From: a virus
Strand: one strand, 5' to 3'
Virus genome (UHGV): UHGV-0338128
DNA length: 16,784 nt
Shown: positions 4,340 through 9,914 of the stretch, piece after piece
Numbering within the stretch: position 1 is the stretch's first letter
How the letters are laid out: each line of letters starts with the position of its first letter
Notes under the pieces: generated by a model
What the model was told of the DNA's origin: nothing
Database searches by the model: none
What the model saw: the letters and a program-made list of their open reading frames with translations, nothing else
Position numbers and translations under genes: made by a program

Positions 4340-4830
4340 GATTCGATGATTTTCAGAAACGGGTTAGTGGCTTTCTTCTGCCCCGCCAGGCCAATCAGAC
4401 GCTGACGGCTGCTGGGGTCGAGTCCGAGCATTGCCCCCGTGCTGCTCATCTCGGACTCCTGTTCTTTTTTGGCTGTCAGCTCCGGATTTTTGACCCTGCC
4501 GCCCATTGCGCCGGTGATGGTATTGCCCTGTATGGCAATATTTTTCACAGCACGTCGCCAGAACTCATAGGCCACGCACCACCGCTCAAGCACCGCGAGG
4601 TCAGTCACGCACAGCAGGCCCTGACCGCAGAGTTCTTTGGTTGTCAGTTGCCACATGATCGTGGCGAGAGGGAGATCTTCTTCAGCGAACCACTCCGGTG
4701 GCTCAACACCTTTGATGGGCGTAAAAACAGGTTCATCTTTGTTCAGGGCTCGCTTGCCGGGGTTTCCGGCCAGCGCCTTGCGCGCCGTTGGCTTGGGGCG
4801 ACGCCCGGAACGCCCCGCCGTTCCAGCCAT
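4336..4830 (-). CDS. terminase small subunit (P27-like family)
   Basis: N-terminus [28 protein letters not shown] is typical of P27-type small terminases. Start taken at the ATG at 4830 (AGGAG 8 nt upstream); the ORF track start at 4839 is a GTG three codons earlier. Confidence 0.8.
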
Positions 4831-4880
4831 ATGCGGCACTCCTGGTTAAATTTCATTTTTCGCGGGTATAAAAAAACGAT

Positions 4881-4929
4881 GGGGCGGGCAGTCCGGAAGA
4901 CGTCAGGTCACAGGGATTTGACCCGCCCC
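4881..4929. other. candidate cos / terminase recognition region: inverted repeat GGGGCGGG (4881-4888) ... CCCGCCCC (4922-4929)
   Basis: An 8-bp GC-rich inverted repeat with a 33-bp spacer lies in the 116-bp gap between HNH endonuclease and terS. In HK97-like phages the cos site is in this position. Confidence 0.3.
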
Positions 4930-4955
4930 TCCCCTCAGAAAGTTGAGAATTATTA

Positions 4956-5306
4956 TCACTTCAGTCGTTCACGGGCCGTCTTCGCCTTATGACACGGCCA
5001 GCACAGGCTCTGCAGATTGCAGTCTGCATCAGTGCCGCCATGCGCTTTAGGGATGATGTGGTCAACGGTTTTCGCCTCACGCACCACACCGACATGCAGG
5101 CACAACTGACACAGGCCTTTGTCACGCTTCAGCACGCGCGCGCGGATAACATCCCACTTCGAACCGTAGCCGCGCTGGTGACGGGATTGTCCTGGCTTGT
5201 ATTGTTTCCAGCCTTCGCTTTTGTGGCTTTCACAATAGCCTGACGGATCAGTGGTGGTTTGGCGGCAGCCGCGAACGCGGCAGGCTTTTGGGGTTCGTGG
5301 GGGCAT
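4956..5306 (-). CDS. HNH endonuclease (HK97 gp74-like, packaging-associated)
   Basis: 116-aa ORF with Cys pairs (CRVRGC, CESH, CQLC) and the HNH core DHIIPKAHGGTDADCNLQSLCWPCH, located immediately upstream of terS. Confidence 0.85.
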   Translation of the reverse strand: MPPRTPKACRVRGCRQTTTDPSGYCESHKSEGWKQYKPGQSRHQRGYGSKWDVIRARVLKRDKGLCQLCLHVGVVREAKTVDHIIPKAHGGTDADCNLQSLCWPCHKAKTARERLK

Positions 5307-5408
5307 TTAAAGTGGGATCTAACTCTAATAATTTAAAAAATTTAATTGGGTCTTGATATTAATCACATAGACTCAATGCTCTTTAGTTCTTACATAGGTG
5401 GTTGTATT

Positions 5409-5849
5409 ATGAGTATCCCCAGTTTAGATGTTCATAAAGTTGTTAAGTGCGCAGAGCATAAAAAGGCTTTAGATGCAATATCTCTCAAACTTAAGAATAA
5501 CATTATTGACTCAAGCTCTGAATACGATTTTCTTGGCGACACAATAATTTTCAATAAAGATAAAAAAAATAGGTTAACCCTCAAACTTTCAACATATGAA
5601 CTAGAACTTATTTTCAAAGAAACACTGCTAGTCATTGATGAAGCTCCTGTATTGAAGTTTGCTGCCATTGACCCAACCGATGAAAATAACAACGAGCTGA
5701 TTGATTTATTTTTATCCAAAGGTGGATTTATTTATATTAGAGAATACAAATCCGAGCCACATTATGAGTATGGCGACACTTCTCTATTTTTACATATACT
5801 TGACGCTACTCTTAAAGAGCTTAAATCTGCAAACAAAATATCCTATTAA
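5409..5849 (+). CDS. hypothetical protein, AT-rich moron, 146 aa
   Basis: ATG at 5409 with AGGTGG 7 nt upstream; the ORF track extends it to a TTG at 5346. Strongly AT-rich compared with flanking phage genes. Oriented opposite to the late operon. No family recognised. Confidence 0.55.
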   Translation: MSIPSLDVHKVVKCAEHKKALDAISLKLKNNIIDSSSEYDFLGDTIIFNKDKKNRLTLKLSTYELELIFKETLLVIDEAPVLKFAAIDPTDENNNELIDLFLSKGGFIYIREYKSEPHYEYGDTSLFLHILDATLKELKSANKISY

Positions 5850-5955
5850 ATAAATTTTTGCTAACATAGCCCCGCGCCATGACAAGATTTTCTGTTCTAG
5901 ATGCAAGGGCTATGTGTGAATATCTATAAACAAAAAACCCATCCGGTGATTTTTG

Positions 5956-6180
5956 TCATTTTTTAGCCATCTCAATTGCGGCATCAAAAAGTCGTTCAAG
6001 AATAAAATCAGGGTACTGTAATTTTTCTTGCTCGATATGAAGCTCATAAATTTTCCCTTCCCACTCCCATTTAAAATTAAATCCAGAAGCAGAAGGTGCG
6101 AAATGTGTTTTAGCTTTAGGGTTAGCGTAACCAGCAACAGTCAACACATCAAACTTAAAATCTTGAGGTTTAATACGCAT
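5956..6180 (-). CDS. hypothetical small protein, AT-rich moron, about 74 aa
   Basis: Start taken at the ATG at 6180 (MRIKPQDFKF...) with AAGGA upstream; the ORF track starts at 6207 (MMNLAKDMIM...). Convergent with the 146-aa gene. No family recognised. Confidence 0.5.
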   Translation of the reverse strand: MRIKPQDFKFDVLTVAGYANPKAKTHFAPSASGFNFKWEWEGKIYELHIEQEKLQYPDFILERLFDAAIEMAKK

Positions 6181-6212
6181 AATCATATCCTTTGCCAAGT
6201 TCATCATTATTC

Positions 6213-6247
6213 TTCGCGATTATAAAACAATGAATAAAATCATTAAA
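6213..6247 (-). promoter_or_regulatory. candidate sigma70 promoter for the 74-aa moron gene (-10 TATAAT, -35 TTTAAT, 17-bp spacer)
   Basis: On the minus strand a perfect TATAAT (plus 6219-6224) lies 17 bp after TTTAAT (plus 6242-6247), about 35 nt upstream of the ATG at 6180. Confidence 0.3.
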
Positions 6248-6277
6248 GCATAGACGTTAAATATCCTCAAAATGTGA

Positions 6278-6715
6278 TTAGTTGGGACATTGCGTCCTGA
6301 TATACTCCTGCAAGTAATTGACCTGTGAGGTTATCTTGTCGATTCCACTTCGGAGACGGTAATAATGGAGTTCAGCATCTGCTGTAAGTCTAGGGCTTTC
6401 TCCATCGCCCATGCCGCTGGCTCCGGTCGTTGACTTTGTACAGGTGGCGGCGACTTGCAGGCGCTTATGCCCAGCAGAAACATCAGCACGAAGACTTTCG
6501 ATAGTCGCATTAGCATCAGCAAGCTCCTTTGTATATCTGGCATCGAGTTCAGCTACATTACGTTGACGCTTCTGCATATCAGCGATGATGGATGTGGCTT
6601 TATCGCGCTGTACTTTGTAGACGATGGCGTCATCACGGTAATTATCAACAGCCCATGACAAGCAGACGATGATGCAGATAACCAGAGCGGATATAATCAC
6701 CGTTACTCTGCTCAT
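6278..6715 (-). CDS. Rz: i-spanin Rz
   Basis: N-terminus [23 protein letters not shown] (signal-anchor) followed by coiled coil; closely resembles lambda Rz as I recall it. Start overlaps the endolysin stop. Confidence 0.9.
6331..6516 (-). CDS. Rz1: o-spanin Rz1 (lipoprotein embedded in Rz in a different frame)
   Basis: Embedded ORF with lipobox LLGISAC followed by a proline-rich segment ([13 protein letters not shown]). Start taken at the ATG at 6516 (AAGGAG 8 nt upstream); the ORF track extends to 6543. Confidence 0.75.
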
Positions 6716-7188
6716 ACCTGAATCTCTTTGACCGTTCCGCCGGCTTCTTTGAATTTTGCAATCAGGCTGTCAGCCTTATGCTCAAACTGACCATAACCAG
6801 CTCCCGGCAGTGAAGCCCAGATATTGCTGCAACGGTCGATAGCCTGACGAATATCACCGCGATCAATCATCGGTAAAGCACCACGCTCTTTAATCTGCTG
6901 CAGTGCAACAGCATCCTGGCTTTTTGGAGAGAAGTCTTTCAGTCCAAGCTGTTTACGGTATGCATCCCACCAGCGGGAAAGAAGCTGGTAGCGCCCGGCA
7001 GCCGTTGATTTGAGTTTTGGGTTTAGCGTGACAAGTCTGCGAGGGTGATCGGAGTAATCAGTGAATATTTCTCCGCCCACAATGACGTCATAACCATGAT
7101 TACGTGTCGGTTGTAGCCCATTATCCGTTCCTTCTGACCAGGCCACCATATCGAGGAAAGCTTTACGCTGAGGATTAAGATTTTGCAT
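6712..7188 (-). CDS. R: endolysin, lambda R-type lytic transglycosylase
   Basis: 158 aa; [24 protein letters not shown]...[86 protein letters not shown] is near-identical to lambda R as I recall it. Confidence 0.95.
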
Positions 7189-7579
7189 TTTTCACCCCTG
7201 TCAGTCGTTCCCAGAAGTACGTCAGTGCAACCGAACCCATCGCACCACTAATCCCCGCAGTTGCGAGAATCATGTAAATACTGAATCCACTTTCGATACT
7301 GATTAGGCCACCAATAACACCGGTGAATCCTGATACAACTATCTGAGCGAGGGCATTTATCCAGCTCCACGTTGCTTTACTCTGCTTCACATCAATCAGG
7401 TAACGGACAAGCCCCCCCCAACCTGCGATGATCAGCAAAACAAGCCAGAACGCTCCGGCAAGATTCTCTTTTTCGTGCATATGAATAGCCGCAGTTTCGC
7501 CTCCGACAGAAAATCGGAGCGTGAAATGATATGTTGATTTATTATTAATTCGAAAATTACATTCTAATTCATCAGGCAT
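7175..7579 (-). CDS. holin (three predicted TM segments; not lambda S or phage 21 S type)
   Basis: Three hydrophobic segments (GAFWLVLLIIAGWGGLV, WINALAQIVVSGFTGVIGGLI, FSIYMILATAGISGAMGSVAL) directly upstream of and overlapping the endolysin gene. Start uncertain: ATG at 7579 has no SD; an in-frame ATG at 7480 (MHEKEN...) gives about 101 aa. Confidence 0.7.
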   Translation of the reverse strand: MPDELECNFRINNKSTYHFTLRFSVGGETAAIHMHEKENLAGAFWLVLLIIAGWGGLVRYLIDVKQSKATWSWINALAQIVVSGFTGVIGGLISIESGFSIYMILATAGISGAMGSVALTYFWERLTGVKNAKS

Positions 7580-7597
7580 TGATGATTTTATAATAAT

Positions 7598-7620
7598 AAA
7601 GGCCGTTCGTTACGGCCTTT
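7598..7620 (-). terminator. intrinsic terminator-like hairpin after the acidic moron gene
   Basis: GGCCGT (7601-7606) / ACGGCC (7612-7617) stem with a 5-nt loop, flanked by A/T runs on both sides; read on the minus strand it is followed by UUUAUUAUUAU. Confidence 0.45.
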
Positions 7621-7631
7621 ATTATTGATAT

Positions 7632-7967
7632 TTATTTTACATCCCAAGGTAGTTCCTCAAGAGAGAAGACTAATTCATTATCAATAATTTCGTATTCTGC
7701 ATAACCTTCAACCTCTCCTGAGAAGTTATTGTCAACGCATCCTTCATAATAGCTATATGGTGCTATAAAGTGAAACCCATATTCATCTATCTCTGTGATT
7801 TCAAAATTGTAGTAATCGTAAGAATATCGAATATCATCATCAGAAATAGAACTAAGTACATAGTTATTAAATTTATCGGAATGCTTAACGATAAGTTCTG
7901 ACAACGCGTCAAGATTCTCTGGAGAGATATTTCCTAACGGTAATCTGTACTCAACGGCATTAATCAT
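7632..7967 (-). CDS. hypothetical highly acidic protein (111 aa), late-operon moron
   Basis: ATG at 7967 with strong AAAGGAGG SD. By my hand count about 24 Asp/Glu against about 5 Lys/Arg, and rich in Tyr/Phe. AT-rich. Bracketed by two terminator-like hairpins, downstream of Q and upstream of holin. Confidence 0.6.
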   Translation of the reverse strand: MINAVEYRLPLGNISPENLDALSELIVKHSDKFNNYVLSSISDDDIRYSYDYYNFEITEIDEYGFHFIAPYSYYEGCVDNNFSGEVEGYAEYEIIDNELVFSLEELPWDVK

Positions 7968-8019
7968 ACAACCTCCTTTTTAACTGATATGAGGTTATAT
8001 AATGTGTTTCAGTACAAGT

Positions 8020-8045
8020 AAATAAAAACCCGCTCAACAGCGGGT
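8020..8045 (-). terminator. candidate tR' intrinsic terminator
   Basis: On the minus strand: ACCCGCU-GUUG-AGCGGGU hairpin (plus 8028-8045) followed by UUUUUAUUU, about 110 nt downstream of the Q stop. Confidence 0.6.
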
Positions 8046-8086
8046 TCGTGAAAATTATCAACGGCAGACATACAAAGCCCATCGTT

Positions 8087-8121
8087 GAGAAAATCTTATC
8101 CATATTTTTTGAAAAATGCAA
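8087..8121 (-). promoter_or_regulatory. candidate late promoter PR' (-35 TTGCAT, -10 TAAGAT, 17-bp spacer) with presumed Q-utilisation region
   Basis: On the minus strand TTGCAT (plus 8116-8121) and TAAGAT (plus 8093-8098) lie between the Q stop (8153) and the tR'-like terminator. Position fits lambdoid PR'. Not experimentally verifiable from sequence. Confidence 0.35.
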
Positions 8122-8152
8122 GCTTCATGTCACTATCTTCGGCGAAAATCAC

Positions 8153-8905
8153 TTATCTCGTCACCTTTCTCAATTGTGTTTCAGCATATGCTTCTTCCTG
8201 CCAGCACTTTGTTACTAGTTTATCAATTACGTCTGCATATCCTTTGTACCACTGATAATCAGTCAGGTCTGGAACCAGCTTCTGGACATGACGTCGTGCC
8301 AGTGTAGTCGGTAAACGGCTAAACCGGTTTCCATTGCAACGCCCACAAGTCTTATAAACAGGCGTGCCATGAAGCCGGGTTCTTTTTTCATCCAGGACAA
8401 TACCTTTACCCTTACACCCTCTGCACGCCGTGCTGACTTCTCCCTTGCCATGACAATGCTGACACAGTTCCTTCACCCACTCTTCTTTGATAACGGATTC
8501 CCCGCTTCTGGAATGTTTCACCACTTCGCGCAATACATTATGAAATCCAGTACCAGTACAATGCTCACAGCGAGCCTTACTTGCCGCAGACCTGGAATAA
8601 TCAGCAAAGGCAAAATTCACAAGGTAAGGGATGATCTGTAACCGGGTTTCTTCACTCAATTTGTTCAATGTCGGGTTATCCAGTGCCATCGCGTAATTGA
8701 GCAGGCCTTCAATCGCAAACTGAGGATCCTGAACACCAACTTTTGCCAAGAATAAGGCAAACCCAAGCGGTGCTTTCGACTGCACCATCCCCTGCGCAGC
8801 CATTACATCCGTAATTGTTAAACCACCCGAGCCTGTCGCCGATGCGTCATCGCTCAATTTTGGAGATTTTGGGGAGTAATATTTCGGTAAGGCTTCAAGG
8901 TTCAT
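8153..8905 (-). CDS. Q: late-gene antiterminator Q (cysteine-rich, zinc-finger type)
   Basis: Start at the ATG at 8905 (MNLEALPKYY...) with GGAGAA upstream; the ORF track extends 14 codons further. Contains CEHCTGTG, CQHCHGKG, CRGCKGKG and CGRCNGN motifs. Sits immediately upstream of the candidate PR'/tR' and lysis genes; I recall similar Q proteins in Stx-type lambdoid phages. Confidence 0.8.
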   Translation of the reverse strand: MNLEALPKYYSPKSPKLSDDASATGSGGLTITDVMAAQGMVQSKAPLGFALFLAKVGVQDPQFAIEGLLNYAMALDNPTLNKLSEETRLQIIPYLVNFAFADYSRSAASKARCEHCTGTGFHNVLREVVKHSRSGESVIKEEWVKELCQHCHGKGEVSTACRGCKGKGIVLDEKRTRLHGTPVYKTCGRCNGNRFSRLPTTLARRHVQKLVPDLTDYQWYKGYADVIDKLVTKCWQEEAYAETQLRKVTR

Positions 8906-8918
8906 GCTCGTTCTCCAC

Positions 8919-9914
8919 TTACACCAGTACGCCAATTGCCAGCGCACGATCGATAAAACGAAATATCAGCTCCAGCTGGGAGCCATACATCTCTTCAAAT
9001 GCCACGGTATCCGCATGCAGCTCGTCGTGATGCTTTCTGCACAAAGGCAACACAAAAAGGTCATGCGCTTTTGTACCCATTCCACCCTGTCCGTGGCCTA
9101 TCAGGTGGTGGGGATCATCAGCGGGCTTTCCACAACATGCACACGACTGTGTCTTAACCCAGCGCGTGTACTTTTCATTAACCCAGCGGCGACATTTTGG
9201 GCGTAACATAAAAGACTCCGGCGACTCCGGATCCACTTTCAGCGCCAGCACCTTTTTCGCTTTATCCTGGATGATGCTGGTGGCAGGAACCGAAGGAACA
9301 AGGTCACTTTCCCGGGTGACAGACGGCACAACAGGCTTTGGTAATCTCAGTGCCTTACGGGCTGCACTTTCCGGTAAGGCATCCGCCAGGTCATTACGAA
9401 TCAGCCACCAGCACAGTTCCGGCATTGTCACAACGTGACTGTCATCAAAACCGAGATCCCGACGCACAACAGACAACACCCAGCGGGCACAGTTATCCGT
9501 TGCCATTGATTCCAGCCGTTCCGTGAACTGATCGCGCAGCTGGTTATCGCAGTGCCAGCACAGACGGATTGCGCCCGGCGCGTGTCGCATTGTGGTCATG
9601 TTCTCGCTGTGCCAGTCGGAATGAGGCCACTGGCAGCCTTTTTCACGAAGTAACCAGCTTTCAAGACATTCCACGCCACCAGCACGACGGATCACTGCCT
9701 CATTGCGGAACACGGCCCGAACAGCAGGATCATCCGCCAGCGGTTGTGATGCCGCGGGAACGGCACCACTGGCGAAAGATGAATAACGTTCCGGCTCAGG
9801 CTCCAGCAGTACACGCCCCTGCATAAACAGGGGCATCAGTTCTGAACCTGGTCTGAACAATACGATCCCCATACGCGGGGCTATTTCAGGGGTCAGTAGT
9901 GCTCTCACGGTCAC
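8919..9914 (-). CDS. DUF968-like phage protein (YdfU-like) with C-terminal HNH/zinc-binding-like motif
   Basis: 331-aa ORF; C-terminal CACCGKPADDPHHLIGHGQGG...CRKHHDELH motif. Position just upstream of Q matches ydfU-quuQ in the E. coli Qin prophage as I recall it. Start codon at 9914 is GTG; the first in-frame ATG is at 9872. Confidence 0.6.
   Translation of the reverse strand: MTVRALLTPEIAPRMGIVLFRPGSELMPLFMQGRVLLEPEPERYSSFASGAVPAASQPLADDPAVRAVFRNEAVIRRAGGVECLESWLLREKGCQWPHSDWHSENMTTMRHAPGAIRLCWHCDNQLRDQFTERLESMATDNCARWVLSVVRRDLGFDDSHVVTMPELCWWLIRNDLADALPESAARKALRLPKPVVPSVTRESDLVPSVPATSIIQDKAKKVLALKVDPESPESFMLRPKCRRWVNEKYTRWVKTQSCACCGKPADDPHHLIGHGQGGMGTKAHDLFVLPLCRKHHDELHADTVAFEEMYGSQLELIFRFIDRALAIGVLV

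Follow-up and report, generated by a model that had tools for sequence, protein, structure and literature searches.

The window analysed here, a 16,784-nucleotide (nt) stretch of the virus genome UHGV-0338128, raises the question of what a phage carries between its antiterminator gene Q and its lysis genes, the slot in which related phages carry Shiga toxin. In the window this slot holds one gene, for a strongly acidic protein of 111 amino acids (aa). The gene is a late-operon moron encoding an uncharacterised accessory protein, and its family is an orphan that has already been catalogued as PHROG 13663. As to function, we tentatively favour a stand-alone inhibitor or decoy that binds another protein.

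The open reading frame (ORF) reported in the preliminary description at 7632–7967 exists, with the correction that it lies on the minus strand, like all window genes in this part, with its ATG at 7967–7965 and its TAA at 7634–7632. The coding sequence corresponds to WP_000606308.1. The hand counts given for the protein were exact (24 Asp and Glu against 5 Lys and Arg), and the many aromatics mentioned amount to 19 Phe, Tyr and Trp residues. Asp and Glu make up 21.6% of the protein, which has a net charge of −19 and a pI of 4.05. The ORF is AT-rich as described, with 33.3% G+C versus 50% for the whole window. On direct reading, the N-terminus (MINAVEYRLPLGN...) has no signal peptide and no hydrophobic or membrane segment. 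The ORF is a real gene under purifying selection, because the ratio of non-synonymous to synonymous substitution rates (dN/dS) between the Salmonella and Citrobacter homologues was 0.28, the window and Salmonella sequences differed at a proportion of 0.17 of non-synonymous sites (pN) versus 0.80 of synonymous sites (pS; saturated), and the length is kept in homologues down to 26% identity.

The limits of the inserted DNA were determined with a 1151-bp query, from the end of Q to the start of the holin gene, against 5426 complete E. coli genomes. The part with Q and the terminator tR' was found in about 3000 of them, with homology ending at 8025–8013, just past the terminator. The holin module occurred in many other E. 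coli genomes at 93% identity, with homology beginning at 7512. The middle was present in only 131 of the 5426 genomes, always at ≥99% identity. The cassette so delimited (7513–8024, minus strand, 512 bp) has 31.6% G+C, against 47.5% for Q and 48.9% for the lysis genes. It is closed by a hairpin at 7591–7627, listed without a strand, with a GGCCG core in a 15-bp stem and T-rich sequence on either side. The hairpin folded at −20.2 kcal/mol (z −7.9; 0 of 200 shuffles were as stable), in agreement with the earlier statement that the ORF has its own terminator-like hairpin ahead of the holin gene. The terminator scan calls this hairpin on the plus strand; homologous cassettes have clean terminators at the same place, consisting of a G+C hairpin and a T-run. 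Hendrix and Juhala are said to have used the term moron for an extra transcription unit between conserved phage genes. The cassette lies between genes that in related phages are adjacent or separated by other cargo, deviates in base composition and has its own terminator, and we are confident that its anatomy is that of a classical moron, a self-contained and horizontally mobile one-gene cassette. Its host is an SfV/e14-like temperate phage of extraintestinal E. coli, and the gene is fixed in the prophage of the uropathogenic or meningitis-associated strains UTI89, S88 and IHE3034.

The region upstream of the cassette determines how the gene would be transcribed. The upstream genes on the minus strand are KilA-N, a DUF968/HNH protein and Q, a lambda-family antiterminator. 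Q (8153–8905, minus strand) has 250 aa as annotated in UTI89, and its open frame from a GTG reaches 8947. The product matched PF03589 (E 3e-54) and phrog_127 (E 1e-108) and is the RefSeq ‘antitermination protein’ WP_001047143.1; at the DNA level Q is 87–93% identical to the Qin prophage gene ydfT, which about 3000 E. coli genomes carry. The late promoter PR' (8093–8121, minus strand) consists of a −35 element TTGCAT (8121–8116), a 17-nt spacer and a −10 element TAAGAT (8098–8093), and aligns column for column with lambda PR' (TTGACT, 17 nt, TAAATT). In lambda, the Q-binding element is located within this spacer. The sequence CAACGATGGG (8078–8087, minus strand) is identical to the start of the lambda PR' transcript and was invariant among the window, SfV and lambda in the alignment. 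Its lambda counterpart is the −10-like sequence of the qut site, at which a sigma70-dependent pause occurs and Q loads. The terminator scan placed an intrinsic terminator of the tR' type at 8021–8047 on the minus strand (GAACCCGC-TGTT-GAGCGGGTTT plus U-run). Its hairpin and U-run (8047–8026), with a 9-bp G+C stem, lie about 40 nt past CAACGATGGG, and the leader of approximately 66 nt that ends there folds at −21.3 kcal/mol (z −3.3). Seven terminator-like sites were observed in 7000–9000, versus 1.4 expected. Given the alignment with lambda PR' and the hairpin with its U-run, together with the PF03589 match, the earlier reading of Q, a candidate PR' and a tR' hairpin upstream of the ORF was correct. 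A lambda-family Q is present, as is a PR' with a qut/pause sequence followed by a terminator, and the module is, as judged from these sequences, a lambda-type late switch.

The same tR' is common to the window, SfV, the Stx2k phage and K-12 Qin. SfV and the Stx2k phage part from the window directly after the U-run, and the Salmonella and Citrobacter loci resemble the window from the hairpin onward. Since similarity between phages switches exactly at this point, the tR' hairpin looks like a shared recombination joint for the exchange of late-slot cargo. As a separate observation, tR' (GAACCCGC....GCGGGTTTTT) was almost identical behind unrelated Q proteins, namely PF03589 in E. coli phages and PF06530 in Salmonella and Citrobacter; the corresponding hairpins lie at 5917–5950 in the Salmonella locus L002, 5918–5950 in the Citrobacter locus L007 and 2655–2690 in locus L013.

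The cargo behind this module differs among phages. The Q/tR' module of phiSTEC1575-Stx2k, like that of 15 Stx2c phages, matches the window's at 89–90% DNA identity up to the hairpin. The slot of phiSTEC1575-Stx2k then contains several small genes, three tRNAs and stx2AB; in the Stx2c phages, too, the module precedes stx2. The suggestion that the 111-aa gene stands where Stx stands in related phages is literally true: in both cases the gene lies behind the same Q, PR' and tR' and ahead of the lysis genes, and stx2 and the 111-aa gene would share Q-dependent read-through transcription. The proteins themselves are unrelated. With stx2 come tRNA genes and secreted AB5 subunits, whereas the cassette brings one cytoplasmic acidic protein with a terminator on each side. 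The shared slot and module, and the enrichment of the cassette in extraintestinal pathogenic E. coli among the genomes listed, would suit a cargo protein that is set free by lysis and then, like Shiga toxin, targets eukaryotic or bacterial cells outside. We consider such a released effector, which the preliminary description had put forward, extremely improbable: the protein resembles no toxin and lacks a signal peptide, members of the family occur in plant-associated as well as enteric Enterobacterales, and so extreme a negative charge is unlike that of known cell-entering toxins.

Other occupants of the slot are alternative cargo with unrelated proteins, some encoded on the opposite strand. 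SfV carries orf47 and orf48 (a PF01555 DNA methylase), and mEp460 carries two unknown genes and likewise a PF01555 methylase. In K-12 Qin (L047, 2974–4380) the slot is filled by cspF, cspB and ynfU, of which cspF and cspB are cold-shock paralogues; since these three genes occupy it, the slot also accepts cargo expressed independently of phage induction. O157:H7 strain 86-24 combines the same holin with another Q, and its slot is empty, with a gap of 321 nt.

Within the family, position is the most conserved property. In 23 of 23 IMG/VR contigs the gene followed Q and preceded the lysis genes, all on one strand; Q was one of three types in 21 of these and a short PF06530 Q in L040. The E. coli locus combines a PF03589 Q with a LydA holin and a GH24 endolysin. 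In the Salmonella and Enterobacter loci, a PF06530 (phage-82-type) Q is followed by the gene, holin_8 and holin_3_7, and a GH19 endolysin. The gene precedes holin_2 and a PF00959 lysozyme in the Citrobacter locus, and in the Duffyella locus it lies between NinG with a 204-aa Q-like protein without a Pfam match on one side and holin_2 on the other. The slot was kept across five prophage lineages, three Q types and three holin types, and the question raised earlier, whether homologues always occupy the place between Q and holin, can be answered with yes for every phage context examined.

Two further locations were observed outside functional prophages. In Erwinia tracheiphila (L017–L019, L022) a member lies in a decayed prophage remnant interrupted by insertion sequences, approximately 5 kb from a Q fragment. 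A lone member from an unidentified bacterium (L021, 5001–5333) lies next to sbcB, with an intergenic gap of approximately 950 nt on each side.

The gene immediately precedes the holin gene in most loci, and its product is acidic and cytoplasmic, as would suit the typically basic cytoplasmic tails of holins. Such properties would befit an accessory protein that adjusts lysis timing through the downstream holin or endolysin. This role is contradicted by the change of holin families, at least three of which, all unrelated, are associated with the gene along with three endolysin families. A terminator separates the gene from the holin gene, other genes lie between them in L040, L043 and L030, most phages with the same holin module lack the gene (for example that of O157 strain 86-24), and copies exist without lysis genes. 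We therefore regard a role in lysis timing as very unlikely.

The gene always travels alone. No phage locus contained a conserved partner gene, and its neighbours are Q and the holin gene, or a methylase gene: the homologues of L040 and L043 are each directly followed by an orphan PF01555 DNA methylase. The lack of a partner toxin gene argues against the immunity protein that had been considered earlier. The Citrobacter prophage with the homologue encodes a 364-aa pore-forming colicin-domain protein (PF01024; L007, 2181–3275, minus strand), in the early region and on the opposite strand. Immunity to this protein was rejected as a function of the family, as its gene is absent from the other lineages. 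The slot of L040 (1473–3027, minus strand, and 4513–5565) holds about 4 kb of cargo, in the order of a three-gene block on the opposite strand, the acidic-protein homologue and the orphan PF01555 methylase. The 289-aa product of this block matched the PADLOC candidate defence system PDC-S42 (E 1.6e-31).

The protein matched PHROG 13663, a family of unknown function, over residues 1–111 of 111 (E 9.4e-54), and all 25 aligned relatives matched it as well, one of them also weakly phrog_20757 (E 0.005). A word-indexed search of 5.8 billion proteins found relatives only in E. coli/Shigella, Salmonella (72% identity) and Citrobacter (69%). A full scan of 1.84 billion cluster representatives with a hidden Markov model returned 26 at E ≤0.001. 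A profile search further yielded named members from Enterobacter, Duffyella and Erwinia, so that the hosts include plant-associated (Erwinia, Duffyella) as well as enteric species; the named members so far are all Enterobacterales. A second alignment, against a collection of species-representative genomes, returned only Erwinia tracheiphila.

Searches for characterised relatives were negative. The 111-aa protein had no match in Pfam (E ≤0.01), NCBIfam or PADLOC; the 25 members shared no Pfam family at E ≤1 and matched none of the PADLOC-DB v2 defence profiles at E ≤0.1. Sequence searches of the PDB with the single protein and with the profile gave insignificant matches only (IpgC, E 0.2; a surface-anchored protein, E 0.18). 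Neither the E. coli nor the Enterobacter member had a tblastn match among 50,697 records of isolated phages, and no study of this protein was found in the literature. PHROG 13663 is thus the sole family match, and the earlier remark that no homologue is recognisable was borne out in this sense.

Most members have 106–118 residues, and a few are longer owing to N-terminal extensions. All 25 aligned members are acidic, with a pI of 4.05–5.0 and a net charge of −9 to −20. The most conserved positions are core aromatics and a polar set (D45, R47, Y48; G76, C77, K/R78, D79, N81; D104, E105, W108). The other acidic positions mostly vary while the total charge is kept. A structure model built from four sequences was of mediocre quality, with a predicted local distance difference test (pLDDT) score of 74; with 25 sequences the pLDDT rose to 86.7, with a predicted template modelling (pTM) score of 0.77. 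The model consists of a beta segment (3–10), two alpha helices (19–28 and 30–41) and strands at 48–50, 56–60, 64–75, 80–95 and 98–105. The nearest folds are NTF2-like and cystatin-like cones, including VirB8 and TraE domains, SnoaL-like proteins and cystatins. The predicted fold is a generic alpha+beta roll, a likeness that is no evidence of homology, and a Foldseek search of the viral structure library BFVD returned nothing at E ≤0.001.

A resemblance to DNA mimics was also raised in the preliminary description. T7 Ocr, ArdA, T4 Arn, Ugi and AcrIIA4 are likewise small proteins with a pI near 4 and more than 20% Asp and Glu, encoded as single-gene accessory units on mobile elements. DNA mimicry would fit the composition only (a pI below 5 and at least 20% Asp and Glu, kept across the family). 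The proposed likeness to Ocr or ArdA failed on both counts, with no sequence relation in Pfam or PDB and no fold relation to the helical Ocr dimer or the three-domain ArdA, and no known DNA mimic was among the fold matches listed.

Many proteins with NTF2-like or cystatin-like folds bind small molecules. Together with the near-invariant C77 and the conserved G76, D79, N81, D45, R47, D104, E105 and W108, this led us to consider a specific ligand binder or small enzyme, for example an immune-signal sponge, that would use a cystatin/NTF2-like pocket and a cluster of Cys, Asp, Arg and Trp. Neither a conserved His nor any other recognisable group of catalytic residues is present in the family, known sponge or enzyme families gave no match by sequence or fold, and the basic residue 78 is lost in the window's own clade. 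We consider this explanation unlikely.

The cassette contains putative regulatory signals of its own. The Shine–Dalgarno (SD) sequence AAGGAGG (7972–7978, minus strand) lies 4 nt before the ATG and is the sole copy in the window; since a single copy is not above chance (1.85 expected), its position before the ATG is what matters. The earlier claim that this is one of the best ribosome-binding sites in the window carries a caveat, since the site is predicted to be buried by a 13-bp RNA hairpin (7963–8003, minus strand) with the 5' arm ATTATATAACCTC at 8003–7991, a 15-nt loop and the 3' arm GAGGTTGTATGAT at 7975–7963. Hairpins were judged by their minimum free energy (MFE) against shuffled sequences, with folding at 37 °C. 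Averaging the pairing probability over a fixed interval around the SD gave no useful measure, since the interval includes unpaired A residues and shuffles pair the G-rich SD anyway. The MFE was −13.7 kcal/mol (z −2.1), and 8 of 200 shuffles folded as well. Equivalent hairpins were found in L002 from Salmonella (z −2.5), L007 from Citrobacter (z −5.0) and L040 (z −3.2; a 10-bp stem, TTTTTCACCT/AGGTGAAAAA); that of L015 from Enterobacter was weak (z −1.1). The hairpin arms vary along with the SD (GGAGG versus GGTGG). In RNA arriving from PR', the ribosome-binding site and AUG are predicted to be masked. The hairpins of the window, L002, L007 and L040 are rich in A/U and G.U pairs, and from the folding predictions the structure might act as an RNA thermometer.

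A candidate promoter of the cassette lies at 7994–8022 on the minus strand (TTTACT at 8022–8017, 17 nt, TATAAC at 7999–7994). E. coli, Salmonella and Citrobacter keep TTTAC(T/A), the 17-nt distance and TATAAC, although they differ in the spacer and at synonymous sites. The conserved TATATAACC of the window's clade doubles as the 5' arm of the hairpin. Other clades have the invariant elements ATTTC-TG, TTTTTG(A/G)CATAA and TAnnnT, which can be read as TTGACA-15 nt-TAnnnT or as a weak −35 with an extended −10 element, TGnCATAA. A leader of 34 nt that starts after the −10-like hexamer would be unstructured (−1.9 kcal/mol). The conserved sequence block may well be a promoter of the cassette's own, and it suggests that Q may not be the only control on the gene. 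One model with two transcripts did not hold for every clade, as the Enterobacter-type block has two readings, one of which retains the anti-SD arm.

These signals raise the possibility that the gene is expressed from its own promoter in the repressed prophage, insulated by two terminators, and aids the lysogen, for instance by keeping out a second phage, as a factor of lysogenic conversion or superinfection exclusion. Such a role would account for the terminators on both sides of the cassette, the conservation of the promoter-like block where synonymous sites are saturated, and a hairpin that would silence read-through late RNA and is missing from the unstructured 34-nt leader. The persistence of copies in a decayed prophage and as a chromosomal orphan, and the capacity of the slot for lysogen-expressed cargo such as cspB and cspF in Qin, are also consistent with it. 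The candidate promoter is imperfect, however, as its −10 element in the window's clade lacks the final T and overlaps an arm of the hairpin, and the block has two readings in other clades. No member has a PADLOC match, and the strict placement of the gene as the first of the late operon speaks for the importance of late expression. Taken together, an exclusion factor is possible but somewhat unlikely.

We infer that the 111-aa protein is not a toxin, immunity protein, lysis protein or part of the virion. Our tentative preference is for a stand-alone, stoichiometric binding inhibitor or decoy of a positively charged protein of the host or a competitor. It is preferred because charge is conserved though the acidic positions vary, because the gene travels alone, because the slot gathers conflict-related cargo (methylase, defence candidate and toxin) and because there is a published precedent for late-operon counter-defence in AtiEcA of phage phi80 (PMC11364771). 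The atiEcA gene counters Tai and is expressed from the Q-dependent late operon (PMC11364771). Like the 111-aa protein, AtiEcA is a small prophage protein of the late operon, and it binds and neutralises another protein; unlike the 111-aa gene, atiEcA lies upstream of the packaging module and is paired with tai in a non-contiguous operon (PMC11364771). The 111-aa gene differs in having no conserved partner gene and no match in the phage collection.

For the inhibitor or decoy, the sequence of events after induction might be as follows. The 111-aa gene would be the first to be read by the Q-modified RNA polymerase, with possible additional transcription from the promoter-like block of the cassette, and translation would be held down by the hairpin over the ribosome-binding site and start codon. 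Once made, the protein would act alone in the cytoplasm and serve counter-defence or host takeover.

Several points weigh against this role. There is no direct evidence of a binding partner, and no similarity to characterised inhibitors was found in Pfam, NCBIfam, PADLOC, the PDB or the fold searches. The conserved polar and aromatic set points to a defined site or ligand more than to mimicry by overall charge. Proteins that counter restriction normally work when the DNA enters the cell and not at a late stage, and the predicted hairpin would limit translation from the late transcript. The decayed Erwinia tracheiphila prophage and the chromosomal orphan are two exceptions to the conserved position.

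A bolder version of the inhibitor or decoy, which we think improbable, is that PHROG 13663 represents a new structural family of acidic decoys that neutralise a host immune or nucleoid protein and are expressed in two modes. The hairpin, which covers the −10 element of the cassette, would mask the ribosome-binding site in the Q-dependent RNA and be absent from the cassette's own transcript, and timing and dose would follow from which promoter made the message.

As the slot between Q and the lysis genes is the site of Shiga toxin, its other cargo shows which products a phage needs, or can afford, to make earliest and in the largest amounts once it is induced. The cassette is a clean case, with one gene, sharp edges and its own regulatory signals, and it has been passed among three or more unrelated Q modules and holin types without a change of place. 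Genetics should be easy since UTI89, S88 and IHE3034, in which the gene is fixed, are well studied. Should the protein prove to be an inhibitor for counter-defence or host takeover, the repertoire of such inhibitors would gain a new fold; otherwise, the cassette is a compact model of moron insulation and translational gating within a late operon.

The lysis cassette downstream begins with a LydA-type holin gene (7175–7480, minus strand; PF16083, E 1.5e-21; phrog_785; RefSeq), followed by genes for a GH24 endolysin (6712–7188, minus strand) and an Rz spanin (6278–6715, minus strand), and past Rz by an HNH endonuclease and terminase. The holin frame is open from an ATG at 7579 (134 aa), within the terminator region of the cassette, and RefSeq places the start at 7480 (101 aa); the 134-aa form is probably not in use.

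A 37.7-kb circular ‘plasmid’ of E. coli CX04 (NZ_CP081716.1, L049) proved to be a complete phage genome of this type, with capsid, tail, terminase, lysis and Q regions and a 100% identical copy of the gene. This points to an active CX04 phage whose excised circle was captured by the assembly.

A second AT-rich island (5307–6250, 32–36% G+C) lies between Rz and the HNH endonuclease and terminase genes. It contains an ORF of 74 aa on the minus strand (5956–6180) and one of 146 aa on the opposite strand, from an ATG at approximately 5411 to 5849, with the SD sequence AGGTGG. Neither had a match in Pfam, PHROG or the phage collection. The 146-aa ORF (5411–5849) was rejected as a partner defence gene, having no homologue in any other locus that carries the family; it is also frameshifted in UTI89 and missing from the CX04 phage. 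The position of the island is that of Tai-type defence genes in phi80-like phages.

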